Notes under the pieces: generated by a model
Told to the model about the DNA's origin: nothing
Seen by the model: only the letters and a program-made list of their open reading frames with translations
Database searches by the model: none
Made by a program: the position numbers and the translations under genes
Assembly (NCBI GenBank): GCA_964481885.1
Contig: CAYZUS010000002.1
Coordinates: forward strand, 40,837 to 104,836
Reading direction: 5' to 3'
DNA length: 64,000 bases
Source: an uncultured Actinomycetota bacterium
GTDB taxonomy: Bacteria; Actinomycetota; Humimicrobiia; Humimicrobiales; Humimicrobiaceae
Shown here: positions 31,677 to 56,502 of the stretch, in pieces
Layout: every line of letters starts with the position of its first letter
How positions within the stretch are numbered: position 1 is the first letter of the stretch

Positions 31677-32660
31677 TTAGAATAAATTACATTTTTTTAG
31701 CCAGTCAATACTGTCTTCGATTGTCTGCCTCACCGGTCTTGGATCATACCCCAGCTGCTCCGTAGCTTTATTATGGCTGATGAAAGAATTGCTTCTTAGC
31801 GTCCTCAAAGTATAAATGGTAAACACAGGCTTATGGCCAGTTACCTTATAATATATGGGGGTGAGCATTGCCACCGGATAAGCCACCCAGACAGGCAGTT
31901 TGTACCTTGGCAGAGGAACGCCCGTTAACTCTTTCAACATCTGCATAAGTTCGCCGGTGGTTACTCTCTGGCCTGAAAGTATATAGGTTTGCCCTTTTAC
32001 TCCCTTTTGAGCTGCAAGAATATGTCCCATTGCAGCGTCTCTTGCATCTACAAAATCAAAGGCACCATCCATAATAATTTTTTGTTTTCCCGCACAATAA
32101 TCAATAAACATGGAACCAATATTTGATACCTTGAAATCATACGGCCCCATTATTCCGGTCGGGCACACTATAACTGCGTCAAGGCCCTGCTGACTGACTG
32201 CCCTGAGCACATCCAGGCTTGCTTGTGCCTTTGTCCTGTTGTACTCGCCCATCCGGTTGTAAGGATCAAAAGGCAGAGTCTCGTCAATAATAGTTCCTGC
32301 CCCGCTTTCCCTATAAGCGCCGATGGAACCTGTGTAAATCAGTCTTTTTACTTTGCATTCAAGACAGGCCTTAATAACATTGCCGGTACCGACAATATTT
32401 ATTTCTCTTAATCTCTTGTGACGTCCCGGCATTATCGATACTTCTGAAGCAAGATGATAAACATACTCTGCACCATGAAAGGCTTTTTTTAGTGATTCAA
32501 AATCAAGAACATCACCATAAACTTTCTCAACTTCGCAGTCATCAAAACAAGCTGTGTCAGAAGATTTACGAACGAGGGCCCTTACATCCCTGCCCATGTT
32601 TAAAAGCTCCCTTATAAGAGCGTTTCCCAAAAGACCTGTTGAGCCTGTAATTATATCCAT
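31677..32660 (-). CDS. NAD-dependent epimerase/dehydratase (extended SDR)
   Basis: ITGSTGLLGNALIREL Rossmann motif and the YxxxK catalytic region. 327 aa. Confidence 0.75.
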   Translation of the reverse strand: MDIITGSTGLLGNALIRELLNMGRDVRALVRKSSDTACFDDCEVEKVYGDVLDFESLKKAFHGAEYVYHLASEVSIMPGRHKRLREINIVGTGNVIKACLECKVKRLIYTGSIGAYRESGAGTIIDETLPFDPYNRMGEYNRTKAQASLDVLRAVSQQGLDAVIVCPTGIMGPYDFKVSNIGSMFIDYCAGKQKIIMDGAFDFVDARDAAMGHILAAQKGVKGQTYILSGQRVTTGELMQMLKELTGVPLPRYKLPVWVAYPVAMLTPIYYKVTGHKPVFTIYTLRTLRSNSFISHNKATEQLGYDPRPVRQTIEDSIDWLKKCNLF

Positions 32661-32857
32661 AGTTTATTATTTATCCCTTATTTTAAGCTTTACTTAATGT
32701 ACCGGTTCCCTTATACAGAGTTTAAAAGCATATGGTAAATTTTATCTCTCTTCAATATTCTTACTGTTTATATTATCGGAATTATCTTTTTTGCTTTAAA
32801 ATGCCGGATAAAACCTCTGAATCCGGCCTGGCAGAGCAATTATAAATGCGCATAACC

Positions 32858-33796
32858 CTATAAACTTATAAACTTGCTTTTCGATAAGGTTTTTAATGCA
32901 AAATAAGTTATCCACTTGCTGGGTTTATTTTTTTTCTCAATATCCACGAGCATCCTGCCATTTAATGAGGATTCCATCTTCCATTTCCAGCCGTCAAGTT
33001 TCTTATCGTTAATATATTTCAGCGCATTTTTTAAATTAGAATTCTGTTTGCTGCAGCCGGCATCAACCAGTATCTGGGTAATTTCCAGGATATCGCTCTG
33101 ACTGCCTCTGGGGAAACCAAAACTGGTCCACTGCCCGCTTTTTTCCTTCTTTCTCGGGTAATTTGCTTCGACAATGTCATGGCTCAATAAAAACTTTGTT
33201 GCTTTGCCTATTGTTTTACTGACGCTTTCATTTCTGTTTTCCAAAGGAATACTGTTTAATGCCCTGATTATTTTGGCAATTCCCCAGGGACATTTCAGTT
33301 GTTGTCTGTACTTGCACCTGAAATCGTTCCTGAAAACAATATCAGTTATAAAATCTATTAAATGCTGTGTAAATGGTGCATCAAAATAACCAAATCTTAA
33401 AAGCATTTCAAGAGTAGTACCCTGAAGACACATGAGATTACCTGAGTATCTGCCCCTGGCAGGAAAGGCACCGTTTAATGTTTGCATGTCATTTACCATC
33501 AGGCTGACACCTTTTTTAATAGCAGGATTATTTCCAGCCACACCAAAAAGTGACAAAAAATACAGCTGCCAATATGATGAACGGTAAGGGGGATTATTCG
33601 TAAAACTTTCCTCCTGCCACATGCCTGATGGATCCTGCAGACTTAAAATGGCCGATGCAGCACCTGACTGCAGAATTAAATTTTCATGATGCATAGCATC
33701 AGAAGATGTAAGTTTTTCCCCGACAATGTTTACCAGTGTATAGTATTTAACTGAAGGATTGTCATCTTGAAGAAGCCAGTTTATTGATTTTTCCAT
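32858..33796 (-). CDS. hypothetical protein, possibly alpha/alpha-toroid (prenyltransferase/squalene-oxidase-repeat-like)
   Basis: 312 aa with repeated W/Y-rich QxxxG-like segments (SGMWQEE, SYWQLYFL). Low confidence from sequence alone. Confidence 0.3.
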   Translation of the reverse strand: MEKSINWLLQDDNPSVKYYTLVNIVGEKLTSSDAMHHENLILQSGAASAILSLQDPSGMWQEESFTNNPPYRSSYWQLYFLSLFGVAGNNPAIKKGVSLMVNDMQTLNGAFPARGRYSGNLMCLQGTTLEMLLRFGYFDAPFTQHLIDFITDIVFRNDFRCKYRQQLKCPWGIAKIIRALNSIPLENRNESVSKTIGKATKFLLSHDIVEANYPRKKEKSGQWTSFGFPRGSQSDILEITQILVDAGCSKQNSNLKNALKYINDKKLDGWKWKMESSLNGRMLVDIEKKNKPSKWITYFALKTLSKSKFISL

Positions 33797-33869
33797 AAAA
33801 TATAATGATCCCGGTTAAAGAATCTCGATTTTTTTAGCAATATAAAATTCGTTTAAAGTCAGTGGCACC

Positions 33870-35348
33870 CTAGTAAAGCTTGGAAACCAGGCCATATATA
33901 TTTTTATATTTTTCATATTTTTCAAGATACCTTTGCTTTATGCTGCTGTCGGGGTCAAACCTGTCTTTTACTTTTACGAATTTGGACAGTGCCTCGTTTA
34001 AGGTAAACTTGCCTGTGCCGACGCCCGCAAGCATCATTGTTGCAAGACATCCTGCTTCAGTTATATCCATTCGAAGTATGGGGCTGTCAAGAAGCGAGGC
34101 CTTTAATTTAAGCTCATAATCCGATTTCGCTCCCCCGCCTGTTGCCCTTAGTTCTGTGAGTTTTATGCCACTTTTTTTAACAAGCTCAAGATTATAGCAA
34201 ATCTCAAATACAAGACCTTCAACCAAAGCTTTAAAGATATCCTCCCTGGTGGTACCGAGATCAAGCCCGATTAAAGAGCCTTTTGCAACTGGATCCTGGT
34301 AAGGAGTGCCTGTTGCAGAAAAATATGGCAGTGCAAAAATTCTCGACGGCTTGTAGTCAAGCCTTGAGGAAATATCCCTTATCGTCTGATTTTGCCCATC
34401 AGATATGGTATCCCTGAACCATTTAACCACACTGCCTGAAGAAAGGTTATACGCGAGTGTCACATATTTGTCAGCCACTCCATGGGCCTGGCAGCAAAAA
34501 TTATACTCAAGCATCGCATCATTGGTTTGAGCTTCCTCCATGCAGATGCTGGCACACTCTACGGTGCCCATTCCATCAGCGGCAATGCCCCCGGTAATGG
34601 CCCCTGCTCCAAGAGCAGAACAGGGCTGGTCATGGCATCCGGAAACGACCGAAACCTGTCCTTTAAATCCGAGGTCTTCAGCAATTTTCTTACTGACAAA
34701 TCCAATCTCATTTCCAGAGGCAATAGGTTTTGAAAACAGATTTATATCTATATCAAAGTCATCAAGAATACCTTTGGTCCAAATCTTTTTTCTTACATCA
34801 AAAAATAATGTTCTAGAGGCAAGAGCATAATTTATCCTCGGCTCTTCCACACCAAGTTTGTGCGCCAGAAGATCATCTGTGAGAAGAATTTTTTTGGTGT
34901 TTTTATAAATTTGTGGCCTGTTGTTTTTAATCCATAAAATCTTGTTTAGCGGGCAGATATACCCTGGAGGAAACCCTGTTATCCCGAATAGCTCCGCAAC
35001 AGTGTATTTTGAGAGAACATATTCAAGCTCCTTTGTGCTTCTGGCATCAGTTGAATAAATGGTATTAAAAATCACATTGCCTTTTTCATCTATGGGTGTA
35101 ATACCTTCTCCAAAAGTTGATACGGCCAATGCTGTTACTGGGTCCTTTAGCACAGCAGGATTATTATTTACATTTCTTAATACATCAAAAACTTTTTTCC
35201 ACTGCGCTTCAGTGTCAAACTCAACCCACCCCGGCTCAGGAAATAATAAATCATATTCTTTATAGTCTGTAGCAAGAATGCTGCCATTTTCATCAAAGAC
35301 TATTGCTTTGGTGCCGGTAGTGCCAATATCTATCCCCATCAGGCTCAT
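33870..35348 (-). CDS. FGGY-family carbohydrate kinase (xylulokinase/gluconokinase-like)
   Basis: GIDIGTTGTKAIVFD...GCHDQPCSALGAG...ATGGGAKS. 492 aa. Confidence 0.8.
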   Translation of the reverse strand: MSLMGIDIGTTGTKAIVFDENGSILATDYKEYDLLFPEPGWVEFDTEAQWKKVFDVLRNVNNNPAVLKDPVTALAVSTFGEGITPIDEKGNVIFNTIYSTDARSTKELEYVLSKYTVAELFGITGFPPGYICPLNKILWIKNNRPQIYKNTKKILLTDDLLAHKLGVEEPRINYALASRTLFFDVRKKIWTKGILDDFDIDINLFSKPIASGNEIGFVSKKIAEDLGFKGQVSVVSGCHDQPCSALGAGAITGGIAADGMGTVECASICMEEAQTNDAMLEYNFCCQAHGVADKYVTLAYNLSSGSVVKWFRDTISDGQNQTIRDISSRLDYKPSRIFALPYFSATGTPYQDPVAKGSLIGLDLGTTREDIFKALVEGLVFEICYNLELVKKSGIKLTELRATGGGAKSDYELKLKASLLDSPILRMDITEAGCLATMMLAGVGTGKFTLNEALSKFVKVKDRFDPDSSIKQRYLEKYEKYKNIYGLVSKLY

Positions 35349-35543: not shown

Positions 35544-36659
35544 TTACTTTCTCATGCTTTCAGTCAGTATCATCTCAATTTCTCCCCTGTTGTTTTCAGG
35601 TTCAAAATATGCATCAATAATCTTCTCTACCGGCATGGCGTTAATTCTTTCGTTCATAATATTAAGAGCAAGTGCATTAATCTCAACTGCTTTTTCGACA
35701 GGCATTCTTTCAGGATTTATATCAATACCAAAATATTCCTTAAACCCTGCCATTTTAAGAACAAAAAGCATGCTTTCGGCCTGCTGCCATTCTATTACTC
35801 CAATATTTAAATCCTGGTCGTAATTTCCAAGCGGCTGGCTGTTCCAGTGGGTATTAAAAAGTCTTCCTTCCCTTAAGCATCTTGAAATTGCATATGGTGT
35901 ATCTTCTCCGCCCATCCTTACGTGGCCAATTTCAGGCTGCATACCCATAAGCGCAATACCTTTATCAAGCAGGGCCCTGTTCTCTTTGTTCTTCATTCTG
36001 CCTTCGATATCTTTGCATGCTATAAGTCCGTCAGCAGTTGTCCTGTATATATTATTGGGGGCAGGCTCGTAAGGCTTTGGTTCAATGGCGCATATAACAC
36101 CCGGAACTTCGTCCATTGCCTCTGCAACAGCACCTTCAAATCTGTCCCACATATCATAAAAAAGGGTTCCGAGCGAATATGTGTAACCATCAATGCCGGG
36201 CCATATTCCTGCATGGTGAAGATTTTTTGCCTTTGCAAATTTAAGAGTATTTACAAGCGTTTCACACGCCTTGTCACGATATTTCTTTATAGGATTTGAA
36301 AGAGAACCAAATTCATATTCTTTGGGATAAAATATTGCAGGATAAGCTGACTGCAGCACTATCCCTGTCTCTTTTTCAAGTCTTTCATACAAGTGATAGT
36401 TCTCTTCGTTTACTTCAGTAGGATAATGCGCCTCAAGTGCCCTCACTCCGAATTTTGCCATGCCTGCGGCCATCTCTATTCTTTCGGCAATTGTCTTGCC
36501 GGGAACATAAGCTTCATGAAAACGCCCGCCGCCAGGTGCGAAATACCATATTCCCAGAGAAATCTTCAAATCAAGAGAAAAACTTTTCATATGCTTTACG
36601 AGCTCTTCCCTTGAAAGCCTTTTCTTCTGGTAGCCTGTATCTGTTATTGAATTAGCCAT
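35544..36659 (-). CDS. xylose-isomerase-family sugar isomerase (L-rhamnose-isomerase-like TIM barrel)
   Basis: AIEPKPYEP motif (compare XylA IEPKPxEP) and a metal-binding His/Asp pattern. 371 aa. Confidence 0.55.
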   Translation of the reverse strand: MANSITDTGYQKKRLSREELVKHMKSFSLDLKISLGIWYFAPGGGRFHEAYVPGKTIAERIEMAAGMAKFGVRALEAHYPTEVNEENYHLYERLEKETGIVLQSAYPAIFYPKEYEFGSLSNPIKKYRDKACETLVNTLKFAKAKNLHHAGIWPGIDGYTYSLGTLFYDMWDRFEGAVAEAMDEVPGVICAIEPKPYEPAPNNIYRTTADGLIACKDIEGRMKNKENRALLDKGIALMGMQPEIGHVRMGGEDTPYAISRCLREGRLFNTHWNSQPLGNYDQDLNIGVIEWQQAESMLFVLKMAGFKEYFGIDINPERMPVEKAVEINALALNIMNERINAMPVEKIIDAYFEPENNRGEIEMILTESMRK

Positions 36660-36763: not shown

Positions 36764-37927
36764 CTATTTTGAAACCTCTATCTGTATTTTTATCTGCTGA
36801 CCGGGATTTGTCTTTAACAGCCTTATTGCTTCTTCAGTCTTTTCAAGAGGGTATGTCCCCGTTATAAGCGGTGCAACTTTAACGAGCCCTTCCTCTATTG
36901 AACGAATGGCGCCAGGCCATGCAAGAGGAGCGAGCCATGCAGAACGGATTTCCTTGTCCATTGTATGAAAACTTAAGGCAGGAATCTTAAAGACATCGTC
37001 CCCATTGGGAAGCCCAAAGTGTACTATAACGGCACAGTTACCGACAATTTCCACTGCCTGTTCAAAGGCTGCATTTGAGCTTGTCGGGACTATTGCCCTG
37101 TCGGCAAGCCTGCCCCTGGTGAGCTCGCTTATGGTTTTCTTTAAATCCGGGGTATAGTATTTGCTCGTTTTTTCCACAGTATTAAAAATATAATCGGCTC
37201 CCACTTTTTTACCCTGCTCAAGTCTCCAGTCATCATTGGTTGCCCCCATCAAAGCAACTTTTGCTGCCCCGAGAGATTTGATCATCTGTATCATCATCAT
37301 TCCCATTGCACCTGGGCCAAAAACTGCAACAAAATCAGCTATTTTGATACCCAGTTTTTTGACTCCGTTTAGGGCGCATGCAAGCGGTTCTGTAAATGCC
37401 CCGGCAGAATAACTCATATCGTCAGAAATTTTAAAAAGACCTGTGTACCTTGAAACGCAATACTCTGCAAAGCCCCCGTTTACGGTTACTCCCGGGACAT
37501 TTAAATTTGCACACAAATGTGTCTGGCCCTCAGCACACGCATAGCATGCATTGCAATTCTGCACAGGATTTACAACAACCCTGTCACCTGGTTTAAACAG
37601 GCCAAGCATTTCCGGGACACTTCCAACTTTTACAACTTCACCTGTAAATTCATGCCCCAGAACAATAGGGCCCTTGCCGTTTGCTGTCCCTACAGGAGAC
37701 AACCCATAGTAGTAAGAAATATCTGAACCGCAGATACCAACACTTTTAACTTTTACAAGCACATCTATTGGAGATATCTCAGGAATGGCAATATCCTCCA
37801 TTTTCATTTTTTCAGCCTCATAAAAAACCTGGGCCTTCATTGTACCTTTCAATTCAGCCTCCTTTAAGCATAATTTTGATATTAATTTTGATATTTCTAA
37901 TTCACTGATTTGACTTTTCTGGTTCAA
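36764..37927 (-). CDS. zinc-dependent alcohol/polyol dehydrogenase (MDR family; sorbitol-dehydrogenase-like)
   Basis: GICGSDISYY...GHEFTGEV...GPGAMG Rossmann motif. 387 aa. Confidence 0.8.
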   Translation of the reverse strand: MNQKSQISELEISKLISKLCLKEAELKGTMKAQVFYEAEKMKMEDIAIPEISPIDVLVKVKSVGICGSDISYYYGLSPVGTANGKGPIVLGHEFTGEVVKVGSVPEMLGLFKPGDRVVVNPVQNCNACYACAEGQTHLCANLNVPGVTVNGGFAEYCVSRYTGLFKISDDMSYSAGAFTEPLACALNGVKKLGIKIADFVAVFGPGAMGMMMIQMIKSLGAAKVALMGATNDDWRLEQGKKVGADYIFNTVEKTSKYYTPDLKKTISELTRGRLADRAIVPTSSNAAFEQAVEIVGNCAVIVHFGLPNGDDVFKIPALSFHTMDKEIRSAWLAPLAWPGAIRSIEEGLVKVAPLITGTYPLEKTEEAIRLLKTNPGQQIKIQIEVSK

Positions 37928-38007: not shown

Positions 38008-38895
38008 CTATTGTCCATATTTTTTTATAAGATCATCCAAAATGACCTTGCATCCGGCAGTAGCCTCCAGTGCTTTCGGCCAGAAACAAAGATCTATCGC
38101 CCACCATTCATCTTTATAACCCGCATCCAGAATCGCAGGCATAATTTCGTCAAAGTCAAGCAGACCGGTGCCAAGAGGAGCGTGAGTGCTTGTCTCGTCT
38201 CCATGAAGGGTTCCGTCAGAATCAATTAAATGTATGTGGCCTATTTTCCCGGTCAGCATATGCGCAAACTGCACAACTCCTTTAGGCAAAATCTCTTTAC
38301 TGCCAAGGTGCCTGGAACCCAGCACTGCGCTCATATAGGCATGGCATGAATCAAATAATATTGAAAAATTAGGATGATCAACAATATATGCCATCCTGGT
38401 TACTTCGCTTGGCTTGTTAAATAAAAAGCCCGGTTCGAATTCCCAGATAAGCTTTACGCCTTCTTTTGCACAGACATCCGCTGCCTTGTTCCACACAGAG
38501 GCCACCTTTGAAAAACAGGTTTCATAATCCATTCCTCCCGGTACAGCAGTCGGCCCATCTACTGAATCCACACGTAATTTTGGAATTTTCATATCAACAC
38601 AGATTGCGAGATTCTCCTTTACTGCTTTAATATAGTCATCCTGGCTTGATGTTGCAGGTGATGGAAACGGTGCTGCAAGCCCTGAAATTCCAAGCTTGTA
38701 CTTGTCTAACATTTTCTTGACTTCCAGTCTTTTTTCCTTTGTGTTAGCCTCAAGATGTGGAGGAAAAGCTGCCATTTCAATGCCATCAAATCCAAGCTCG
38801 ACCAGTTTTATTAAAACTTCTTCAAGAGGAATAGGCGCTTCAGAGTATCCGCCCCAAATATATGCCCACCCGCCTATTGATGTCTTTTTTGCCAT
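38008..38895 (-). CDS. sugar phosphate isomerase/epimerase (xylose-isomerase-like TIM barrel)
   Basis: GFDGIEM....WEFEP...HLIDSDG pattern. 295 aa. Confidence 0.7.
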   Translation of the reverse strand: MAKKTSIGGWAYIWGGYSEAPIPLEEVLIKLVELGFDGIEMAAFPPHLEANTKEKRLEVKKMLDKYKLGISGLAAPFPSPATSSQDDYIKAVKENLAICVDMKIPKLRVDSVDGPTAVPGGMDYETCFSKVASVWNKAADVCAKEGVKLIWEFEPGFLFNKPSEVTRMAYIVDHPNFSILFDSCHAYMSAVLGSRHLGSKEILPKGVVQFAHMLTGKIGHIHLIDSDGTLHGDETSTHAPLGTGLLDFDEIMPAILDAGYKDEWWAIDLCFWPKALEATAGCKVILDDLIKKYGQ

Positions 38896-39132: not shown

Positions 39133-40329
39133 TTATTTCCCATAATGCTTTATTTTTGGAGCATCCATATTAATATCCGGCCCAAAGAATTTAATGATTA
39201 CAAGATCAGCCTGGCCATCATTTTTAACTGTAATGGGTTTGACTGCTCTGTCATGAGAAACAAGAAGCTCATCAAACTCGAAGTTCTTGCCTTCTATTTT
39301 GTGGCCGTCAAAAGTTCCTTTTCCCCTCCAGACAAGGATGTTAAAAACACCTTTTTCAGTAAAAGTGAAGCTTTCGCCGGGTTTTACTCTGAGGCGCTTC
39401 CCTGAGAATTTGGTTGTATTATAATAAATCCAGTGTTCTACTCCGCCTGCCTGCTTTGACTCTTCAACCAGAACATTGGGCAGATGGTGATTTTCATAAA
39501 AATAAGGATCGCCGTTTACGGGCCAGTCGAGCTGGTCAATTATTGCTCTTTCGCCTTTATTTTCCCTGTCTTCTTTGCAGACATCCTTATAAAGCAGTTC
39601 TTTTGAGATTATTTTCCCTGCATTTAAAGCCTGAAGCATTGAAAAAACATCAGAATCTTCCTGAAGCTCTATGGTAAGAGCAGTCCCCGGAGCATGAAGC
39701 ACTCCTGAAGGAAGGAAGAAACCTTCACCCGGAACATTAAGGTAAGCTCTTGCATGCTGCAAAATAAGGTCATCCTTCCATTCAACCAGGTACGGAAGCA
39801 GTATGTCATATTTCTTTTCATCAACAATATAAGGGTGCACTCCAAAAAATGTTTCAGGGTGCGGACCCAAATCTACATCTTCAGGAAAATAGTATGCTTC
39901 ATCTTTGGAATTTGCTCCAACCAGCTTTGCATCCTTCTCTCTCTGGTGTATATGGTAAGGGATCCTGGCACCGAAATCATAAATTTTTGCAAGTCTTCCG
40001 AGCCCTGAATGCGACTTTGCATACTGGGTACCCATAACAAGTTCTCCTGCAGCTGCTACAGCATCCCGCAGGCTTAATTCCTGGTCGCCGCTGATGTTTA
40101 AATAACTTAATCCCTCATCCTCAGGACCTATTGTATTAGATGCTTTTGTTACGGAAGCCAGCCATCGTTCACAAATAAACCCCCTGTCGCCGGCATCATA
40201 TTCTTTTTCCGTAAGCCCAAGTCTTCGTCCCGGCGGAAGAAAATCCCTTGCAACAAACGCAGGTTTTAACTTAAGAACTCCGCCGCCATCTTCCAGTGCC
40301 TTTTTTACAATCTCGTGGATGTCAGTCAT
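39133..40329 (-). CDS. cupin-type sugar isomerase, class I phosphomannose-isomerase (ManA)-like
   Basis: AKIYDFGARIPYHIHQREKD resembles the ManA motif ...LSIQVHPNK. A second His-containing region (ENHHLP) follows. 398 aa. Moderate to low confidence. Confidence 0.45.
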   Translation of the reverse strand: MTDIHEIVKKALEDGGGVLKLKPAFVARDFLPPGRRLGLTEKEYDAGDRGFICERWLASVTKASNTIGPEDEGLSYLNISGDQELSLRDAVAAAGELVMGTQYAKSHSGLGRLAKIYDFGARIPYHIHQREKDAKLVGANSKDEAYYFPEDVDLGPHPETFFGVHPYIVDEKKYDILLPYLVEWKDDLILQHARAYLNVPGEGFFLPSGVLHAPGTALTIELQEDSDVFSMLQALNAGKIISKELLYKDVCKEDRENKGERAIIDQLDWPVNGDPYFYENHHLPNVLVEESKQAGGVEHWIYYNTTKFSGKRLRVKPGESFTFTEKGVFNILVWRGKGTFDGHKIEGKNFEFDELLVSHDRAVKPITVKNDGQADLVIIKFFGPDINMDAPKIKHYGK

Positions 40330-40372
40330 TTTTACCTCCTGTAATTTACAAATATTTGTAATAATAATTAAT

Positions 40373-47904: not shown

Positions 47905-48064
47905 TCCTTTCGAGGCACGAAATAATAATGAAAAGAGTTTCTTTTTAAGACCTGTGCCTCTTCAAAAAAGAATGAAAAGACAGCCCCGCAAAAGAATAAA
48001 AAGAGTTGCTTTTTCAAACTTCTTCCTCTCCACAAAAAAGCTAAAAGGCATCCTCACAAAAGAT

Positions 48065-49175: not shown

Positions 49176-50018
49176 CTAAATACCGCAGGATTTCAGGAAC
49201 TGAACACTTTTCTTAAGTATTTCAGGATCACCGACAATTTCCAATGTTGAAGCTTCAATATTTGTACCTTTAAGAGCATCACAAATACCTTTGATATCAA
49301 TAATACCGTCTCCCATTGCTATTGTTGAAAACCCTGCACCAAATTGTTTGGTTCTCTTTGGCAGCCAGTCTTCACCCAAATCTTTCCAATGAACATGATG
49401 AATTTTGTCTTTAAAAGTTTTAGCCATTTCAACAGGGTCAGCACCGCCCAGCCAGCTGTTTCCAGTGTCAAGATTTAAACCAATGGCTGGATTGTTATCA
49501 AGAAGATCAAACACTTTTTTCAGTCCGTCGATTGTATCTGTAATTGGCCCATGATTTTCCAGAAGAATTCTTACTCCATAGTCTGAAGCCATTTTTACCG
49601 GTTCACAAAGCTTTTCAGCAATCGTAAAGGTTCTTTGTTCAATTGTAGTTTTACGACCCCATTCCGTAGTGGCTTCACCTTCTGTTGTGATAACTTCTTT
49701 TACTCCAATGGCAGCTGCCATTTTAATTGCTTTCATAATTTCTGCAGTTCCGAATCTGCTGGGTTTGGATGGATCAAGAAGGTTTGCATGGGCACATATT
49801 GTTGAAATTTTTATACCATATTTATCAAATAGTCTCTTAACATCAAAAGGGTTGTCGTCAAGGCTTACTGTCGGGCTGAAACCTGCTGTTCCAAGCATGC
49901 TTCCACCTGCATTTGTATCAGTAACGTCAGCATATAAAAATCCCATTTCCTTTGCAGTTTTTAATTGCTCTTCAACACTTGCAAAAGGCTTGATTAAAAG
50001 AAATAATCCTATGTTCAT
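49176..50018 (-). CDS. sugar phosphate isomerase/epimerase (xylose-isomerase-like TIM barrel)
   Basis: LLENHGP...LNLDTGN...HVHWKD. 280 aa. Confidence 0.75.
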   Translation of the reverse strand: MNIGLFLLIKPFASVEEQLKTAKEMGFLYADVTDTNAGGSMLGTAGFSPTVSLDDNPFDVKRLFDKYGIKISTICAHANLLDPSKPSRFGTAEIMKAIKMAAAIGVKEVITTEGEATTEWGRKTTIEQRTFTIAEKLCEPVKMASDYGVRILLENHGPITDTIDGLKKVFDLLDNNPAIGLNLDTGNSWLGGADPVEMAKTFKDKIHHVHWKDLGEDWLPKRTKQFGAGFSTIAMGDGIIDIKGICDALKGTNIEASTLEIVGDPEILKKSVQFLKSCGI

Positions 50019-50335
50019 CTTTCCCTCCTGAAATTTTTTTTATTTTAATTTTTAATCTTATTATTAAAAAAGCTTTATCAGCTGAATAGTCAATCTCACT
50101 GGAAACCTTTGGTCCTAAAAAAAATCTGGTACTATGGCAATATGGTAATCTGGTAATTTATCGATTATTTTGAAAATTAAAATTTATATTTTTCTTTTTC
50201 TTTTGGTTCTTTTGAATATATAGCCTGCAGAAATATCCTGCAGGCTATATAAGCTCGTATAACTTTCTGACCTAAAATTAATAACTTTTTTGATTTCGTT
50301 CCCTGCTAGTAGAACGACTGAATATCAATTTATGG

Positions 50336-51523
50336 TTATTTTGCCAGATAAGCAGTTAGTTTCTCATCAAATGATTTGAAGAGATCAGCATTTTCTGTGT
50401 AGCTTGTTTCGTAGAATGCAAGATCCCACTGGAATTTATTTTCAGCTCGTGCCTTCAAATAATCCTCGATTACCCAAGGAATAGCCTGATCCAAATTTTC
50501 TTTGGTCATTGCTGCCCAAGGTTTGATCTGCAGATAAGTGAGAGCTTCTTCGCCTCTAAGATAACGGGAGATCTGCTGAATACAAAGATCAGCATTTAAT
50601 GATGGAGGATTTGGAGATGTAGCTGACATCTTGCCATCTTTAATTAACTGCCAACCTTCTTCTTTACCATTGCAGGAAACCATTATCTTGCCTGTTACGT
50701 TTTGTTCTTCAAATACCTGCTGAACACCGAAAGCTGTTTCTTCATTGCAAGCAAAAATTACATCAAATTCCCTGCCTGATGAAATAAGATCCTGTGTTAT
50801 AGGTATTGCAAGAGTTCTCTGCCATTCTGAGCTTTTGGTTAAAAATGCTGGTTCCAGGCCTGCTTCTTCAAGAGCCATATCAAAACCAACGATTTCGCCT
50901 TCAGCTGGGCCCTGTCCAAGAAATCCGGGGATATTTACACTCTTGGCATTAGGAACATTTTCTGCAACCCATTTGCCAACCTGATAACCCATGATTACAA
51001 AGTTATCAGTTACGTGTCCCTGAAGTTCAGTTCCTGCTGTAAGCTCAGGTTTTCCAGCGATAAAGAATATTGGCACCTTTGCATCGTTAGCAGCCTTGAT
51101 TGTAGTAGCGCTTCCTGCTGCACCTGCAGTTATAACTGCAATTGCGTCTACGCCCTTAGCGATAAGATCCTGAACGTTTGCAAGTTCTTTTTCAGGTTTG
51201 TAGTCAGAGTTAAGCTCTGTAACTATCATACCCTGTGATTCTGCCAAAGCCTTAAATGCTTTTCCAAATGCTGCATAATAATCATCAGGACCTGCATTTA
51301 CAAAGCCAAGTTGTTTTCCTGTAAGATCCATCTGAGCGGCTTCTGTTTCAACAGCAGCAGCAGTAGTTTCAGCAGCAGCAGCTGTGGTTTCAGCAGCAGC
51401 AGTTGTAGCAGCAGCTGTAGTAGCAGCAGCTGTAGTTTCAGCAACAGTTGCAGTTTTACAACCAATGCCTATTGATCCTAAAATAGCTATACAGATTACG
51501 ACTATAAGTAGCTTTTTTAACAT
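50336..51523 (-). CDS. sugar ABC transporter substrate-binding lipoprotein (periplasmic-binding-protein type I fold)
   Basis: Signal peptide plus Cys, then a Thr/Ala-rich linker (TAAETTAAATTAAA...), then a ribose/xylose-type PBP domain. Confidence 0.75.
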   Translation of the reverse strand: MLKKLLIVVICIAILGSIGIGCKTATVAETTAAATTAAATTAAAETTAAAAETTAAAVETEAAQMDLTGKQLGFVNAGPDDYYAAFGKAFKALAESQGMIVTELNSDYKPEKELANVQDLIAKGVDAIAVITAGAAGSATTIKAANDAKVPIFFIAGKPELTAGTELQGHVTDNFVIMGYQVGKWVAENVPNAKSVNIPGFLGQGPAEGEIVGFDMALEEAGLEPAFLTKSSEWQRTLAIPITQDLISSGREFDVIFACNEETAFGVQQVFEEQNVTGKIMVSCNGKEEGWQLIKDGKMSATSPNPPSLNADLCIQQISRYLRGEEALTYLQIKPWAAMTKENLDQAIPWVIEDYLKARAENKFQWDLAFYETSYTENADLFKSFDEKLTAYLAK

Positions 51524-51600
51524 CTTTTCCTCCTTTTATCTTTCCTTCTTTTGTATTTACGCTAGCAGAACATTTGCGCATCAAAATTATGATGCAATTT

Positions 51601-52650
51601 TTATTTTACAGATCTTTCTTCATCAGCTGTCAGCATGACAGAAGAGGACCTGGTACTACTTATGTAAGTAAGAGACACAGCAAACACTATCAGTAACCCT
51701 CTGGTTACATATTGCCAATGGGGATTGACGCCGATAATATTAAGTGCATTTGAAATAATGCCCAGCATCAGCACTCCGATAAACGTACCCCAGGCGTTCC
51801 CTTTACCACCGACAAGTGCGGTTCCACCGACAACAACAGCTGCAATGACTTCTATCTCCTTTCCTTCACCCATCAGCGGGTTTCCTGTGCCAAGCCTTGA
51901 GAGCTGCGCCATGGTTGCTATTGCAACGAAAATTCCGTTGATGCCGTACAGCATGAGCTTAAAGTTTTTTACATTAATACCTGCAAGATATGCTGCACTT
52001 TCATTGCCACCCACAGCATATACTCTGCGTCCAAACTTGGTATATTTCAAAATAAACCATACTATTACTGTAAGAATAATGAATAATATTACAGGAAATG
52101 CTATTTTCAAAACCGGCTGATTTAGAGGGATATTAAGATAAGTCTTGCCGAGGAAAGTAAATTTCCCCTCGATTGTTATCTCTCTGCCGTTTGTTATAAG
52201 ATATGTAAAACCCTTGTATATGCTTAAAAACCCCAGGGAAACTATAAAAGCTTCAAGTTTTGTTCGCGAGATTATAAGTCCCATTACAAGCTGCAACGCT
52301 ACCGCAACTACAAGCCCGAGCCCGGCGGCTCCCCATTCATTCCATCCCAGTGTTTTAATCAGAAAAGCCATGCCTGTGCCTATAAAACACATCATCTGCC
52401 CTACTGAAAGGTCTATGCCTCCTGAGATCATAATAAGTGTCATACTTAATGCAAGCATGCCTGTTATTGATACCTGCAAAAAGACATTTGCAATATTCAT
52501 GGGTTTAATGAACGCAACTTTGGAAATATCCATGCTGCGCACTGCAAAAAACTCCACAATAATGACGATTGCAATAATGAAAAGCAGCACTAAAAAAATG
52601 GATAGATTTTCGTTCTTTGAAAATCTTTTTAACGGATTCTTAGACCTCAT
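51601..52650 (-). CDS. sugar ABC transporter permease (RbsC/XylH-like)
   Basis: 349 aa polytopic membrane protein. Its stop overlaps the ATPase gene by 4 nt. Confidence 0.8.
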   Translation of the reverse strand: MRSKNPLKRFSKNENLSIFLVLLFIIAIVIIVEFFAVRSMDISKVAFIKPMNIANVFLQVSITGMLALSMTLIMISGGIDLSVGQMMCFIGTGMAFLIKTLGWNEWGAAGLGLVVAVALQLVMGLIISRTKLEAFIVSLGFLSIYKGFTYLITNGREITIEGKFTFLGKTYLNIPLNQPVLKIAFPVILFIILTVIVWFILKYTKFGRRVYAVGGNESAAYLAGINVKNFKLMLYGINGIFVAIATMAQLSRLGTGNPLMGEGKEIEVIAAVVVGGTALVGGKGNAWGTFIGVLMLGIISNALNIIGVNPHWQYVTRGLLIVFAVSLTYISSTRSSSVMLTADEERSVK

Positions 52651-54137
52651 CTCATGCTCCCTCCAATCGAGTATTTAAGTATATTTTCTTCATTGATCTC
52701 ATCTTTACTTAATTGTGCCGCCATGTTTCCGTCCCGCATAACCATTACTTTGTCACTCATGGCAACGAGTTCCGGCATGTCAGAGGAAATCATAATTATG
52801 GCTTTTTTAGCCTGCAGAAGCTCCACCATGATTTTATAGATTTCTTCCTTTGCCCCAACATCTATTCCACGCGTCGGCTCATCAAAAATAAATATTTCCG
52901 CATTTGTAGCAAACCATTTCCCTAAAACAACTTTTTGCTGATTTCCGCCTGAAAGAAACATAGCCTTCTGGGACACGCTTGGTGTTGCAATTTCCAAAAG
53001 ATCAACATATTTTTTAGTTATTGCTACATCTTCGGATGGCATTGCAAAAGGCATCTTTGTCTGCGAATAACTTGCAATGGGGATATTTTTGTCAAGGGCA
53101 TGCTTGAGAAATAATCCGGTCTCCTGCCTGTTCTCAGTAATAAAGCACATTTTGTTTGAAATCGCTGAAAAAGGTGTCCTTATATCAACATGTTCCCCTT
53201 TTATTATAATCTCACCAAAAACAGCTTTTTTTGCTCCAAATAAAAGCTCTGCCAGCTCTGTTCTTCCCGAACCTACCATACCGGCAATACCCAGCAATTC
53301 ACCGCTTCTTACTGAAAACGAAATATCTTTAACTCCGTTGCCGCTTAAATTTTTCGCTTCAAACATAACATCCCCGATATCAGCTTTTTGACGCTGATAA
53401 AATAATGAAACGTCACGGCCAACCATGTCTATTATAAGCTGCTGCTCTGTCAGATCTTTAATATCATATGTATTAATTTTCTGCCCATCCCGGATAACTG
53501 TGACCCTGTCAGCGACTTTAAATACCTCTTCAAGGTGGTGAGAAATGTAAACAATGCTTATTCCGCTTTTTGCCAGCTTCCTTAGAATATCGAGCAAGTG
53601 GCTGATTTCGGTCTGTGTAAATGATGAAGTTGGCTCATCAAGGATTATAACCTTGGAATCATGCAGCAAACCTCTGGCTATTTCAACTGTTTTTTGTCCT
53701 CCACTCCCCAACTGCCCGACAATATCATATGGAGATATGTCAGAATGAAGAAATTCCAAAATTTCTTTGGCTTTGGCGACCATCTTTGTTTTATTAAGAA
53801 TGACCCCGTTTGCAATCTCATTGCCTGTAAAAAGATTTTCAAAAACGCTCAGCAGCGGAAATAATGTGTGCTCCTGGTATATTGTCTGGATACCCATTAT
53901 CATTGCTGCGCGGGGATTTGCTATATTGGCTTTTTCCCCATTAAAATATATGTCTCCCTTGTCCGGCGTATAGGCTCCTGAGAGCATCTTGATAAGTGTT
54001 GATTTGCCGGCACCATTCTCACCGCATATGCAGTGAATCTCTCCCCTTCTCAGATCAAACTCAAAGCCTTCAAAAACTTTGACACCCGGAAAGGATTTAT
54101 AAATACTTTTCATCTCAAGAATCAAGTCTTGGGGCAT
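52647..54137 (-). CDS. sugar ABC transporter ATP-binding protein with duplicated ATPase domains (RbsA/XylG-like)
   Basis: Two Walker A sites (GENGAGKST and GMVGSGRTE) and two LSGGxQQK signatures. 496 aa. Confidence 0.9.
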   Translation of the reverse strand: MPQDLILEMKSIYKSFPGVKVFEGFEFDLRRGEIHCICGENGAGKSTLIKMLSGAYTPDKGDIYFNGEKANIANPRAAMIMGIQTIYQEHTLFPLLSVFENLFTGNEIANGVILNKTKMVAKAKEILEFLHSDISPYDIVGQLGSGGQKTVEIARGLLHDSKVIILDEPTSSFTQTEISHLLDILRKLAKSGISIVYISHHLEEVFKVADRVTVIRDGQKINTYDIKDLTEQQLIIDMVGRDVSLFYQRQKADIGDVMFEAKNLSGNGVKDISFSVRSGELLGIAGMVGSGRTELAELLFGAKKAVFGEIIIKGEHVDIRTPFSAISNKMCFITENRQETGLFLKHALDKNIPIASYSQTKMPFAMPSEDVAITKKYVDLLEIATPSVSQKAMFLSGGNQQKVVLGKWFATNAEIFIFDEPTRGIDVGAKEEIYKIMVELLQAKKAIIMISSDMPELVAMSDKVMVMRDGNMAAQLSKDEINEENILKYSIGGSMR

Positions 54138-54254: not shown

Positions 54255-55286
54255 TTATGGCGCAGATTGCCTTATAACTATACTCGGTTCAAGAGTAATT
54301 TTCTTTTTTATATTCTCTTCTTTTCTTATCACTTTAAAAAGAGTGTCTGTTCCCTGGATGCACATCGTCATTATGGGCTGGTTTATGGTTGTCAGGCTTG
54401 GAGATATAACGCTTGAGAACGGAACATTGTCATACCCTATAACAGCTATATCCTGAGGAACCCTGATTTTTAATTCATTAAGTCTTTTAATTACACCAAA
54501 AGCCATTTGATCTGTTGAAGCAAATATCCCTTCGGGCCTGCCTTTTGACAGTATCTCTTTGGTTGCGATGTAACCAAGCTCGATTTTTTCATACTCATTG
54601 TCTTCTTTTGCTATGTAAACCATTTCACTTTTTATCGGCAGGCCAAACTCTTTCATTGCTCTTTTGAAACCTTCGTATCTGTCACGCAATGACATATTAT
54701 ACAAAGGTTCGCTGCAGTAAGCTATGTTTTTAATACCCAGCGAAATGAAATGCTGCACTACAAGAAAACTTCCTTTTATGTTGTTTAAAAGCACGCAGGG
54801 TGCCTCTCCCTCATCTTCAGTTACTTCATCGTCAATCGCTACAAAAGGTATGTTATGCTTATAGAGTTTTTTATAACACTCCCTGTTTGTCAGACCATAA
54901 CATATTATTACACCTGCGACTTTTTGCTGTATCAGGGAAATTATATACCAGTCCTCTATGACGGCGTCGTGCATTGTATTGCATATAAAAGTAAAATAAT
55001 CAAGTTCCCGGGTTATTTTTTCGTTATACTTTATCATTTCATTGTAATAACTGTTCATAACATCCGGTACTACAATACCAATTGTATTGGTCGTGCTTTT
55101 TTTTAGGTTCCTGGCAACAAGATTTGGTATATATCCAAGCCGGTCTGCAGTATCAAGAACTCTTTTTTTTACTGTTTCAGATATATCTTCGGAGTCATTT
55201 ATGGCATACGAAACAGTAGCCTGTGTTACTCCGGTAAGACGGGCTATGTCTTTCATTGTTGGATTTTTAAGCGCTTTTTTCAACAT
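54255..55286 (-). CDS. LacI family transcriptional regulator
   Basis: N-terminal HTH (TMKDIARLTGVTQATVSYAIN) and a PBP-type effector domain. 343 aa. Confidence 0.9.
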   Translation of the reverse strand: MLKKALKNPTMKDIARLTGVTQATVSYAINDSEDISETVKKRVLDTADRLGYIPNLVARNLKKSTTNTIGIVVPDVMNSYYNEMIKYNEKITRELDYFTFICNTMHDAVIEDWYIISLIQQKVAGVIICYGLTNRECYKKLYKHNIPFVAIDDEVTEDEGEAPCVLLNNIKGSFLVVQHFISLGIKNIAYCSEPLYNMSLRDRYEGFKRAMKEFGLPIKSEMVYIAKEDNEYEKIELGYIATKEILSKGRPEGIFASTDQMAFGVIKRLNELKIRVPQDIAVIGYDNVPFSSVISPSLTTINQPIMTMCIQGTDTLFKVIRKEENIKKKITLEPSIVIRQSAP

Positions 55287-55618
55287 AATGCCAAGTGCAA
55301 AATTTTTAAATTTTTATTACTCTCAGTATTAAATAGATTACTACTTATACGTTTAAATCTATTTGCCGAAATTATCCCACATTATTTTACTGATTTCAAT
55401 ACCAAATTCAAGTATTGTTTTATAATTTTATTATACTTTTATTACTTGTCATAAGACTGGCTGTACACAGGCAGATCTTACATACTATAGAAATTTTAGA
55501 ATACTTATTTAAAATTATTTTAAAAAATACCGGCTCGGTCAACTTAAATGCTGGATCAACCCTTCTATTTGCTGACTTGTTTTTATAGTTATAAATAAAT
55601 ATTACACAAAATCAAATT

Positions 55619-55653
55619 GAGAGAAACGGCTCTTGATTTGAACCGTTTCTCTC
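55619..55653 (-). terminator. rho-independent terminator after the TIM-barrel gene at 55663-56502
   Basis: Perfect 11-bp stem GAGAGAAACGG/CCGTTTCTCTC with a 13-nt loop. On the minus strand a U-rich tract follows (revcomp of atcaaattga...aca = UGUGUAAUAUUUAUUUAU...AUUUGAUUUUGU). Confidence 0.6.
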
Positions 55654-55662
55654 AACAAAAAT

Positions 55663-56502
55663 CTATATAATTGCTCTCAGGAAATCCACGCTGGCGCCTA
55701 TTTTTTCATCCAGCCCTGAACATTCTATTGAAATATCGCCATCCCAATTTGTTTCTTTCAGGAATTGGATACATTTCTTTATGTTGTCAGCATTTACGCC
55801 TTCTCCTATAGCTACTTCGCTGCATGCAATACCTGTATCTTCTCCACGAAGTGCGGCTGCGAGCCCGGCACTGACATCCTTGATGTGCGCATGCGTTACA
55901 TATTTTCTCATGGCTTTAAGAAACTCCAGTGGGTCGTTGCCCTGAATAAATGTATTTCCTGTGTCCATGTTAAACCTTAAATACTCAGATTCAAAATGTG
56001 AAAGAAGTTTCTGCATGAAGTCAATATCACCCGTATAAGGTCCATGAGGTTCAACATTAATTATGATCTTATAATCCTCGGCCCACTTAATGCATTCCTG
56101 GTAATTGCGGATAGTCTGCTTTAAGACTTCTTCCTTAGACATATCATAAACCCTGCCGCTGTCTGTGGTGTCAACTTTGGGACAACCCAAATCTCGGGCA
56201 AAACGTATTGACTGCTGAACGTACTGCACGCCATATACCGCACCGTCAAATCCCATCATCGGATAAGAACCATCAATCTGGGAAACTTTCAAACCTCTTG
56301 CATCACAAAGCCTTCTGATTTCCAGAGGATTCTGCCTTAGTGCAAGACTCGGCTCATAGCCCATTGCCTGAATAAAGTACTGCCCGTCGATCATTCCAAA
56401 CTCCATATGATCGAGTTTGTACTTAGCTGCTGAATCAAGAGCTGCCATGTAGCCGCCACTCAGAGTCCTCCAGTTATCAGCATGCATACCAAGTCTAATC
56501 AT
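55663..56502 (-). CDS. sugar phosphate isomerase/epimerase (xylose-isomerase-like TIM barrel)
   Basis: NVEPHGP...FNMDTGN...HAHIKD. 279 aa. Confidence 0.75.
   Translation of the reverse strand: MIRLGMHADNWRTLSGGYMAALDSAAKYKLDHMEFGMIDGQYFIQAMGYEPSLALRQNPLEIRRLCDARGLKVSQIDGSYPMMGFDGAVYGVQYVQQSIRFARDLGCPKVDTTDSGRVYDMSKEEVLKQTIRNYQECIKWAEDYKIIINVEPHGPYTGDIDFMQKLLSHFESEYLRFNMDTGNTFIQGNDPLEFLKAMRKYVTHAHIKDVSAGLAAALRGEDTGIACSEVAIGEGVNADNIKKCIQFLKETNWDGDISIECSGLDEKIGASVDFLRAII

Follow-up and report, generated by a model that had tools for sequence, protein, structure and literature searches.

Gene content of the locus

The 64-kb stretch of DNA analysed here, called the window below, lies on contig CAYZUS010000002.1 of an uncultured, sediment-type bacterium of the class Humimicrobiia, which is part of the Actinomycetota. 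The locus studied (31677-56502) contains 20 open reading frames (ORFs) in a row, all on the minus strand, exactly as many consecutive minus-strand genes as an earlier note on this DNA had counted. Families were called by comparing Pfam and NCBIfam model scores with the cut-offs of the models. The matches agree with the earlier calls of a LacI regulator, a sugar importer of the ATP-binding cassette (ABC) type, here of the CUT2 family (substrate-binding protein (SBP), permease and double ATPase), a major facilitator superfamily (MFS) transporter, two Gfo/Idh/MocA dehydrogenases, a Zn-dependent alcohol dehydrogenase (Zn-ADH), an FGGY kinase and an epimerase-type short-chain dehydrogenase/reductase (SDR); one protein clearly belongs to the uroporphyrinogen decarboxylase (URO-D) family. 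The TIM barrels were miscounted before: five are clear PF01261 members (gene starts 38008, 40373, 48065, 49176 and 55663) and a distant xylose-isomerase-family protein is the sixth, where the earlier inventory, which comes to 21 items, had six plus one. Three proteins of the locus (312, 398 and 435 aa) had no significant Pfam or NCBIfam match, and a sequence search of the PDB with these three joined as a single query gave no matches.

A conserved seven-gene core

Synteny was studied in 26 related loci from genomes, metagenomes and sequencing-run assemblies (L numbers below). It defines a hard core of seven genes, shared by metagenome-assembled genomes (MAGs) of Humimicrobiia type, in the following order:

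41269-42486, minus strand: Gfo41269, LgdA-like Gfo/Idh/MocA dehydrogenase (NF052479, 395 bits against a cut-off of 650)
40373-41224, minus strand: TIM40373, TIM barrel of the ketose 3-epimerase family by sequence, 283 aa (NF051856 and PDB matches)
39133-40329, minus strand: hyp398, 398 aa, member of an unnamed, highly conserved family and anchor of the core
38008-38895, minus strand: TIM38008, TIM barrel, 295 aa (PF01261, 115.5 bits)
36764-37927, minus strand: ZnADH, Zn-dependent alcohol/polyol dehydrogenase (ADH_N and ADH_zinc_N)
35544-36659, minus strand: XI371, distant xylose-isomerase-family protein, 371 aa (PF01261, 26 bits against a cut-off of 31.1)
33870-35348, minus strand: FGGY carbohydrate kinase, 492 aa (FGGY_N and FGGY_C), the last core gene

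As far as each contig reaches, this order is kept at 69-96% identity in L001, L081-L085, L099, L100, L105, L108 and L109. The closest public relative is the Candidatus Humimicrobiales MAG L001 (JBBQDW010000042), with eleven syntenic genes at 79-93% amino acid identity. An exact-sequence search with Gfo41269 gave no match, which places this genome outside the collection searched. The locus stops at the FGGY gene or genes in L082, L083/L084 and L085, where unrelated genes follow. Many cluster genes (e.g. Gfo, LacI and ATPase) are in fragments on the long contigs of L082 and L084, which most likely represents frameshift error of long reads and not true pseudogenes.

Gfo41269 matches PDB entry 4h3v at 331 bits and aligns end to end with the LGDH structure 6a3f (321 bits). 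Its orthologues in related core loci are 74-96% identical, the gene being frameshifted in L082, and its GTG start looks about 4 codons too long when compared with relatives of 401 aa. TIM40373, separated from both neighbours by only 43-44 bp, scores 170 bits with the D-psicose 3-epimerase model NF051856 (cut-off 300) and has full-length PDB matches of about 117 bits to D-tagatose, D-allulose and L-ribulose 3-epimerases, which places it by sequence in the ketose 3-epimerase family.

The anchor protein hyp398 belongs to a family of at least 3504 members, of which the top 120 are at least 69% identical, with a mean column identity of 79%. Most of the named homologues belong to MAGs of Candidatus Humimicrobiaceae or of unclassified Actinomycetota. 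The family profile retrieved only type-I mannose-6-phosphate isomerases (PMI) from the PDB, at E ~0.2. In hhalign hyp398 is collinear with Escherichia coli ManA over 252 columns (E=0.006, probability 6%) and its invariant H126, H128, E144 and H212 align with Q97, H99, E134 and H255 of ManA, which we take to be the four metal ligands of that enzyme. The AlphaFold model of hyp398 is of low quality (pLDDT 57.8), as its alignment was limited to sequences of at least 69% identity. We regard hyp398 as a candidate PMI-type metal-dependent isomerase; the PMI-like cupin previously assigned to this gene is weakly supported and finds no Pfam or NCBIfam match, although the four invariant residues fall on ManA ligand positions.

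Orthologues of TIM38008 (46-91%) directly follow hyp398 in most related loci that reach beyond hyp398, among them L087 and L096, two loci of a type with a family 4 glycoside hydrolase (GH4). ZnADH is of the polyol/IolM/Tdh type: its best NCBIfam match is IolM (185.2 bits, cut-off 450), and orthologues are 49-94% identical. The listed TTG start of this gene looks 25-30 codons too long against relatives of 354-362 aa, and the true start is probably near 37843. XI371 scores 52 bits with xylA_Arthro, 44 bits with RhaI and 40-54 bits with xylose isomerases in the PDB, and has orthologues of 81-91% identity. The FGGY kinase is closest to the xylulokinase XylB (TIGR01312, 292 bits against a cut-off of 380); orthologues are 69-89% identical, except in L100, where the gene is 59% identical and inverted.

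Importer unit and accompanying TIM barrels

Upstream of the core, relatives encode a transporter, which is the orthologous CUT2 ABC importer, another ABC importer or an MFS protein, and also TIM49176 and/or TIM55663. In the window this part consists of:

55663-56502, minus strand: TIM55663, xylose-isomerase-like TIM barrel, 279 aa (PF01261, 105 bits)
54255-55286, minus strand: LacI-family regulator, 343 aa (PF00356 and Peripla_BP_3)
50336-54137, minus strand: CUT2 sugar ABC importer, three genes (Pfam)
52647-54137, minus strand: double ATPase of the importer (Pfam ABC_tran, twice)
51601-52650, minus strand: permease of the importer (Pfam BPD_transp_2)
50336-51523, minus strand: SBP of the importer, lipoprotein-type (Pfam Peripla_BP_4)
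49176-50018, minus strand: TIM49176, TIM barrel, 280 aa (PF01261, 108.7 bits)

The LacI protein is RbsR-like at 239 bits (cut-off 382) and has an 81% orthologue at the equivalent position in L083. Importer orthologues are 71-84% identical in L082, L083 and L107. The SBP shows generic similarity to ribose-binding proteins in the PDB (75-90 bits), which suggests a monosaccharide-sized ligand and nothing more specific. Imperfect CAG/GCA-rich repeats inside the SBP gene (51338-51456) probably encode a low-complexity N-terminal linker, which fits a lipoprotein-type binding protein.

TIM49176 accompanies the importer and the core, with orthologues of 69-84% in L082, L083, L085, L097, L107 and L108. 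TIM55663 reached no NCBIfam equivalog threshold; its orthologues (70-89%) lie immediately upstream of the core in L099, L100 and L108, and a 61% homologue stands in L003 beside an orthologous ABC importer and hyp435, a protein of the variable insert that is described next.

Variable insert

Between the importer/TIM genes and Gfo41269 lies a stretch that varies among relatives:

48065-48916, minus strand: TIM48065, TIM barrel, 283 aa (PF01261, 120.9 bits)
46705-47904, minus strand: Gfo46705, LgdA-like Gfo/Idh/MocA dehydrogenase, 399 aa (NF052479, 305 bits against a cut-off of 650)
45155-46462, minus strand: hyp435, distant protein of predicted URO-D/MetE fold, 435 aa (AlphaFold2 and Foldseek)
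43981-45078, minus strand: UROD, MtaA/CmuA-like protein of the URO-D family, 365 aa as called (PF01208, 208 bits)
42549-43802, minus strand: MFS transporter, 417 aa (PF07690, 100 bits)

Close relatives of the locus contain TIM48065 only in L001 and L082. Farther away, TIM48065 (56%), Gfo46705 (56%) and hyp435 are contiguous in the Planctomycetaceae MAG L073, at identities of 54-56%, L038 has a TIM48065 homologue (60%) near hyp435, and in L008 a Gfo46705 homologue (67%) adjoins hyp435. Gfo46705 itself is 46% identical to Gfo41269. The MFS transporter is present in L001, L081, L082, L098 and L099 and missing from L083. The spacer between TIM48065 and Gfo46705 is filled by a 68-bp unit repeated 2.0 times (47927-48063, 75% match), the fold energy of which is no better than that of shuffled sequences (z = -0.9).

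Presence was counted in the 11 loci, the window included, that span the UROD position. UROD occurs in 6 of them (the window, L001, L081, L082, L083/84 and L107) and is missing from L085, L099, L100, L108 and the P0005 contig, while hyp435 occurs in 4 (the window, L001, L081 and the P0005 contig). The region is best described by three modules: the hard core is Module 1, the LacI regulator, the CUT2 ABC importer, TIM49176 and TIM55663 make up Module 2, and the variable insert is Module 3.

The URO-D-fold proteins UROD and hyp435

The listed start of UROD looks 25-30 codons too long against its relatives of 336-346 aa, and the real length is probably about 336 aa. The TIGR01463 model gives 167.7 bits, under its cut-off of 235.4. 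UROD aligns over its full length with the MtaA structure 4ay7; the motif LHICGN is conserved and AAGCEV falls on APGCGI of MtaA. In MtaA-type enzymes these His-x-Cys and Cys motifs are presumably the zinc-ligand positions, and HemE is not known to have either. Because UROD keeps the two motifs, we assign it to the methyl/alkyl-transferase type rather than to the HemE decarboxylases. Relatives are labelled 'MtaA/CmuA family methyltransferase' by JGI. In L093 such a relative is located between FGGY and PfkB kinases and adjoins a CUT2 importer, and in a Ruminiclostridium MAG another directly follows a Gfo/Idh/MocA gene and a TIM barrel; one of the three sampled contexts (L094) has no sugar genes around it. 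A protein 99% identical to UROD was present on a Logan contig of 4276 bp (P0241) from a public sequencing-run assembly, through which the source organism or a near-identical strain could be recovered.

For hyp435 the Pfam URO-D model gives 15 bits against a cut-off of 23.9 (E=0.013, not significant). The AlphaFold2 model has a pLDDT of 90.9 and a pTM of 0.91, and Foldseek matches it to HemE, MtaA and MetE at a probability of 1.0, with identities of 12-15% and TM-scores of 0.4-0.58. These models point to a confident but distant URO-D fold. The earlier report of two URO-D-like proteins accordingly stands for UROD by PF01208, and for hyp435 fails by Pfam and is recovered at the level of the predicted fold. 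An hhalign comparison of the hyp435 family with UROD gave 81% probability and aligned C401 with the Cys of AAGCEV. DPENGWNE, W200-W202 and YGCCE are invariant in the family and C401 nearly so; C327-C328-E329, also invariant, is found near the position of His-x-Cys.

More than 5000 proteins among 8000 candidates scored belong to the hyp435 family at E<=1e-5, and at least 519 representative clusters at the 50% identity level do so at E<=1e-30. This large family has no Pfam model and is essentially unannotated. We surveyed 80 genome loci around its members, from Actinomycetota, Atribacterota, Spirochaetota, Chloroflexota, Planctomycetota, Bacteroidota and other phyla. Components of CUT2 sugar ABC importers are the commonest neighbours, followed by a 390-aa PF01208 URO-D protein (18 of the 80 loci, often adjacent), which in most cases has a His-x-Cys-Gly motif and a conserved His. 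PfkB kinases, ROK and LacI regulators, sugar MFS transporters and a family 2 glycoside hydrolase (GH2) also recur, and a B12-binding corrinoid protein is near hyp435 in three loci, directly adjacent in two of these (L052 and L078). The order in L012 is CUT2 importer, hyp435, FucI-like isomerase, aldo-keto reductase and a 38% relative of hyp398, and a TIM barrel, an FGGY kinase and a class II aldolase are also found after hyp435 in this locus. An Atribacterota MAG has hyp435 beside UROD. Overall, the recurrence of URO-D-fold genes beside Gfo/TIM genes and sugar importers extends to at least five phyla.

Corrinoid systems in loci related to the core

The earlier note regarded URO-D-like proteins as unusual for sugar pathways of this kind, which is confirmed here, but it missed what they may imply, since in related loci the core is combined with complete corrinoid methyltransferase systems. 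The clearest case is L097, where BLASTP against the window proteins gave identities of 78% for the permease, 72% for the SBP, 69% for TIM49176, 72% for hyp398, 55% for ZnADH and 46% for TIM38008. Directly after hyp398 this locus encodes a corrinoid protein, a 409-aa URO-D protein with the motifs WHICGKN and IPGCQ, a 227-aa protein, a Pterin_bind protein of the methyl-tetrahydrofolate-type methyltransferases and the reductive activator RACo. We take this set to contain all components of a bacterial corrinoid O-demethylase. In L087 and L088, hyp398, the TIM barrel and ZnADH are accompanied by a corrinoid protein and a 414-aa URO-D protein as well as a CUT1 importer and a GH4 glycosidase; the corrinoid set of L087 is partial.

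These neighbourhoods bear on whether the URO-D-fold proteins of the window could instead be HemE-like decarboxylases. They might act on a keto-acid sugar intermediate, e.g. converting a 3-keto-aldonate to a pentulose, which the epimerase, polyol dehydrogenase and xylulokinase-like kinase would then process. HemE decarboxylases indeed rank first among the structural neighbours of hyp435, and the L-ribulose 3-epimerase-like TIM barrel, ZnADH and XylB-like kinase resemble steps of the glucuronate-xylulose route, which runs over L-xylulose, xylitol and D-xylulose. Against this, UROD retains the MtaA motifs, and in relatives of the core the URO-D proteins come together with corrinoid proteins, Pterin_bind and RACo, none of which a decarboxylase needs. 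We consider a decarboxylase function very unlikely.

Transcription units and a candidate operator

The spacers and two strong hairpins indicate that the 20 genes are not one transcription unit. The following elements were located:

55616-55656, minus strand: intrinsic-terminator-type hairpin directly after TIM55663, a 17-bp stem followed by a T-run
50217-50251, minus strand: hairpin with a perfect 16-bp stem, about 85 nt past the SBP stop codon
56648-56660, minus strand: copy 1 of TTAAACGTATAAG, upstream of TIM55663, candidate LacI operator
55344-55356, minus strand: copy 2 of TTAAACGTATAAG, upstream of the LacI-ABC unit, candidate LacI operator

The first hairpin has a fold energy of -30.9 kcal/mol (z = -5.5) and the second of -36.4 kcal/mol (z = -5.4); in both cases none of 200 shuffled sequences was as stable. 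TIM55663 is probably a transcription unit of its own. The second hairpin has a weak U-tract and is likely the end of the LacI-ABC unit, if it functions as a terminator. Nine spacers within the locus are longer than 150 bp. Consensus counts for promoters and terminators equalled those in shuffled sequence and were uninformative, with the exception of one strong terminator.

The 13-mer TTAAACGTATAAG has only two matches in the window even when two mismatches are allowed, and both are exact and intergenic. Promoter-like hexamers are present at 55371-55542, near copy 2. A search of the spacers for palindromes and repeats found no operator common to all units and only this 13-mer at two sites. Since the candidate operator occurs only there, the local LacI protein probably governs only TIM55663 and the LacI-ABC unit.

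The single supercluster of ~25 kb that the earlier note described does not hold in view of the hairpins, the nine long spacers, the modular synteny and two unrelated genes at one end. A synteny comparison, which that note had proposed as a check, gave a divided answer: the seven-gene core recurs, and the two end genes and the variable insert are not constant. These observations also raise the question of simple accretion, in which the region would be a 'sugar island' of independent operons for different substrates and the URO-D-fold genes would have nothing to do with their sugar neighbours. The strong hairpins after TIM55663 and the SBP gene, the long spacers and the restriction of TTAAACGTATAAG to two promoters would be expected then, as would the gain and loss of modules among relatives and the UROD homologue without sugar context in L094. 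However, the order of the core is constant across many MAGs, variable genes always occupy one site between the importer/TIM genes and Gfo41269, and the association of URO-D-fold genes with Gfo/TIM genes and importers is repeated across phyla. Accretion therefore seems unlikely, though it is the alternative we take most seriously.

Boundaries of the locus and flanking genes

The two genes at the downstream end are adjacent to the locus and on the same strand:

32858-33796, minus strand: hyp312, 312 aa, no Pfam or PDB match, QxxxGxW-like motifs
31677-32660, minus strand: SDR, HpnA/SdmB-like, under both model cut-offs

Their homologues occur in none of the 26 related loci, and they (31677-33796) should for that reason be excluded from the locus. 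The toroid-like hypothetical of the earlier note is hyp312, in which QxxxGxW-like motifs are the one feature that was seen. On the opposite flank (56916-58405) a family 2 glycosyltransferase (GT2) and a CrtO-like acyltransferase are encoded. The genes of both flanks may be terpenoid or glycolipid genes.

The DUF89 gene, further TIM barrel and second LacI regulator that had been noted at 60.5-63.4 kb are all present. Here (60568-63435) a DUF89/ARMT1-like gene overlaps the TIM-barrel gene by 4 nt and the pair is divergent from the LacI gene, which looks like a separate small sugar-phosphate unit. Between it and the locus lie unrelated genes: the GT2 glycosyltransferase, the CrtO-like acyltransferase, a metallophosphoesterase and an MFS transporter.

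Elsewhere the window carries chromosomal housekeeping genes (purE, purD, purA, dnaB, rplI, ssb, argJ and others) and contains no mobile-element, corrinoid or one-carbon genes; GC content is uniform along the whole window. Rfam and tRNA scans of the window gave no matches, so that no riboswitch offers a clue to the ligand or to B12. At 15020-18838, two subunits of the HGD-D family and a BcrAD/BadFG-type activator form a 2-hydroxyacyl-CoA dehydratase-type system, and at 11037-14168 a signalling protein of 1043 aa is encoded with several PAS domains, a GGDEF domain and an HD(-GYP)-type domain.

Proposed function

We propose that the region is a modular locus for carbohydrate catabolism, which breaks down keto- or rare sugars and has optional modules for methyl removal, and not a single operon. 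We give this interpretation an even chance of being correct. The analogy with 3-keto-sugar pathways that had been drawn before is reasonable, because both Gfo proteins fall in the LgdA-like subfamily.

From the family assignments we infer the core steps from import to ketose phosphorylation as follows. A monosaccharide-sized carbohydrate would be imported, and an NAD-dependent LgdA-like dehydrogenase would oxidise a ring hydroxyl to give a keto-sugar. The TIM-barrel enzymes could then carry out enolate chemistry on the keto-sugar (elimination, hydration or epimerisation), after which ZnADH or the second Gfo protein would re-reduce the product. The PMI-like protein, the xylose-isomerase-like protein and the ketose 3-epimerase-like enzyme would lead to a ketose, which the FGGY kinase would phosphorylate for central metabolism. 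The URO-D-fold proteins would be optional front-end enzymes of the zinc methyl/alkyl-transferase type; most likely they permit the use of a methylated form of the substrate by removing methyl groups, and this is the least certain step. Their presence in about half of the loci fits such a funnel role, with a core that is independent of them. As stated in the earlier note, the substrate cannot be named from the sequence; a rare hexose or hexitol, a cyclitol, or methyl ethers of these would be compatible.

A more specific version, which we regard as possible rather than probable, is that UROD, hyp435 and their corrinoid-adjacent relatives are the catalytic components of a hitherto undescribed route for anaerobic removal of methyl ethers from methylated sugars or cyclitols. 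The methyl group would be transferred to a corrinoid and from there to tetrahydrofolate, and the keto-sugar/isomerase core would take up the demethylated sugar.

Several points weigh against the proposal. No enzyme reaches a substrate-specific equivalog threshold, and the proposal is built on sequences and models. A B12-binding corrinoid protein, Pterin_bind and RACo were not found in the window, nor within 10 kb of the locus in L082-L085. About half of the related loci lack UROD and hyp435, so that neither is needed for the core to work. In L087 and L097 the URO-D proteins are of other subfamilies and have no BLAST match to those of the window at 1e-5. HemE-type URO-D enzymes are decarboxylases, and the fold alone is no proof of methyl transfer. 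Finally, C3 as the site of oxidation follows by analogy alone, and the PMI assignment of hyp398 is statistically weak.

Significance

Clusters that combine Gfo/Idh/MocA dehydrogenases and TIM barrels are already known. New here are a distinct core, recognised by none of the pathway models or characterised systems tested, two large and highly conserved families without functional annotation (hyp398 and hyp435), and URO-D-fold zinc enzymes. Humimicrobiia, Atribacterota, Anaerolineae and comparable uncultured anaerobes are abundant in sediments and the subsurface, and their diet is largely inferred. The linkage between URO-D-fold proteins, sugar genes and corrinoid proteins is a testable lead on the anaerobic use of methylated sugars or cyclitols. 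The only route of sugar demethylation known to us is oxygenase-dependent, and to our knowledge corrinoid methyltransferases act on aromatic methyl ethers, methanol, methylamines and methylthiols, and not on sugars. Our literature searches returned nothing relevant on URO-D or corrinoid enzymes that act on methylated sugars, or on URO-D proteins in sugar clusters. If the lead is true, methylated carbohydrates would be a new class of substrates for corrinoid methyltransferases and the hyp435 family would represent a new family of enzymes in the carbon cycle of sediments. Even if it is wrong, the analysis remains of use in showing that the LgdA model is no more than the nearest neighbour of the two dehydrogenases, so that an annotation of these genes as lgd should be avoided.

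Comparison with characterised systems

In agreement with the earlier note, orthology tests failed for every characterised pathway compared: by sequence the locus matches none of lgd, iol, Thermotoga-iol, Dgp and ycjQRS at the level of orthologues, and the similarity is at the level of families.

The ycjQRS system for D-gulosides and 3-keto-glycosides has the same triad of a Gfo/Idh/MocA dehydrogenase, a TIM-barrel epimerase and a Zn-ADH, together with an ABC importer and a LacI regulator. E. coli YcjQ, YcjR and YcjS are 31%, 29% and 26-27% identical to window proteins, with partial coverage for YcjQ, and orthology was rejected at these identities (26-31%). Unlike ycj, the window has no phosphorylases or beta-phosphoglucomutase, and its importer is of the CUT2 and not the CUT1 type. 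Membership of the C-glycoside Dgp systems was likewise rejected: solved DgpA structures score only 65-80 bits, and no DgpB/C chain is among the PDB matches (E<=1e-3) of four window TIM barrels.

The iol pathways of Bacillus and Thermotoga share with the window a Gfo/Idh/MocA dehydrogenase, an IolM-like Zn-ADH, IolE/IolO-like TIM barrels and a CUT2 importer. A cyclitol such as inositol, or a methyl-inositol such as pinitol, could therefore be the substrate, broken down by a route related to the IolG/IolM/IolN/IolO route of the Thermotoga type with the URO-D proteins as anaerobic O-demethylases. The best NCBIfam match of ZnADH is scyllo-inosose 3-dehydrogenase (IolM), TIM40373 matches IolO and several TIM barrels weakly match IolE, the Gfo proteins match scyllo-inositol dehydrogenase 5ya8 (184 bits), and L085 uses a ROK regulator. 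The aerobic catabolism of a methyl-inosamine by the rhizopine moc genes, which employs MocA and an oxygenase demethylase, also speaks for a cyclitol. Yet the scores stay far under the cut-offs: IolG (TIGR04380) gives 121.6 and 114.3 bits (cut-off 355), IolE (TIGR04379) gives at most 47.6 bits (cut-off 290), and IolM (NF041097) and IolO (NF041099) give 185.2 and 108.2 bits against 450 and 300. None of the 20 locus genes matches the thiamine diphosphate-enzyme, IolB, PfkB or aldolase families. The Bacillus type was rejected on its low scores and because IolD, IolB, IolC, IolJ and IolA are not in the locus, and the Thermotoga type on the missed thresholds of IolM and IolO. Moreover, the xylose-isomerase-like protein, the PMI-like protein and the XylB-like kinase are better suited to open-chain sugars. 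A cyclitol route is, in our view, quite unlikely, more so than accretion.

With corrinoid O-demethylase systems the window shares the end-to-end alignment of UROD with MtaA and the His-x-Cys and Cys motifs. It differs in having no corrinoid protein, methyltransferase II (MT-II) or activator, only methyltransferase-like URO-D-fold proteins, and hyp435 falls outside every described subfamily. The known enzymes of rare-sugar interconversion are ketose 3-epimerases, aldose-ketose isomerases and polyol dehydrogenases. The window resembles them in TIM40373, a full-length relative of ketose 3-epimerases by sequence, which is encoded together with a Zn-ADH of the polyol type, a kinase of the ketose type and two proteins of isomerase type. 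None of these enzymes reaches an equivalog threshold, and the window has LgdA-like dehydrogenases and four TIM barrels of unassigned function in addition.

The nearest known relative by family is the levoglucosan pathway. LgdA is the top-scoring NCBIfam model for both Gfo proteins, and the architecture of importer, regulator, Gfo and TIM genes resembles the lgd cluster on an Arthrobacter plasmid, so a cluster for levoglucosan or another anhydrosugar had to be considered. True clusters from plasmids of Arthrobacter agilis and Metabacillus dongyingensis served as reference. True LgdA proteins are 68-88% identical to 6a3f and to one another, whereas Gfo41269 is only 43-45% and Gfo46705 39% identical to them. 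The Arthrobacter protein encoded at the LgdB1 position shares no more than 24% identity with any window TIM barrel, the best though weak match being TIM49176 (23% identity, 54 bits), and the one encoded at the LgdC position shares 28% with the window Gfo proteins. The gene lgdB1 normally accompanies lgdA, being in the neighbourhood of 253 of 265 lgdA genes (PMC10066097). Because of these low identities the locus is not an lgd cluster; the anhydrosugar reading is already largely refuted and retains hardly any probability.

On the plasmid pBY2G20 of M. dongyingensis (L091), four to five TIM barrels, two Zn-ADHs and two binding proteins are encoded ahead of the true lgdA, an expanded lgd-type locus with a window-like architecture at the family level. 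The window goes beyond lgd with its PMI-like protein, xylose-isomerase-like protein, ketose 3-epimerase-like protein, Zn-ADH, FGGY kinase and URO-D-fold proteins. The LgdA-LgdB1-LgdB2-LgdC pathway of Bacillus smithii and Paenarthrobacter (PMC7676230, PMC10066097) likewise has a sugar ABC importer and a regulator, and it employs the same Gfo/Idh/MocA subfamily and xylose-isomerase-like TIM barrels as the window. Its logic of oxidation, enolate chemistry and reduction is likely common to both.

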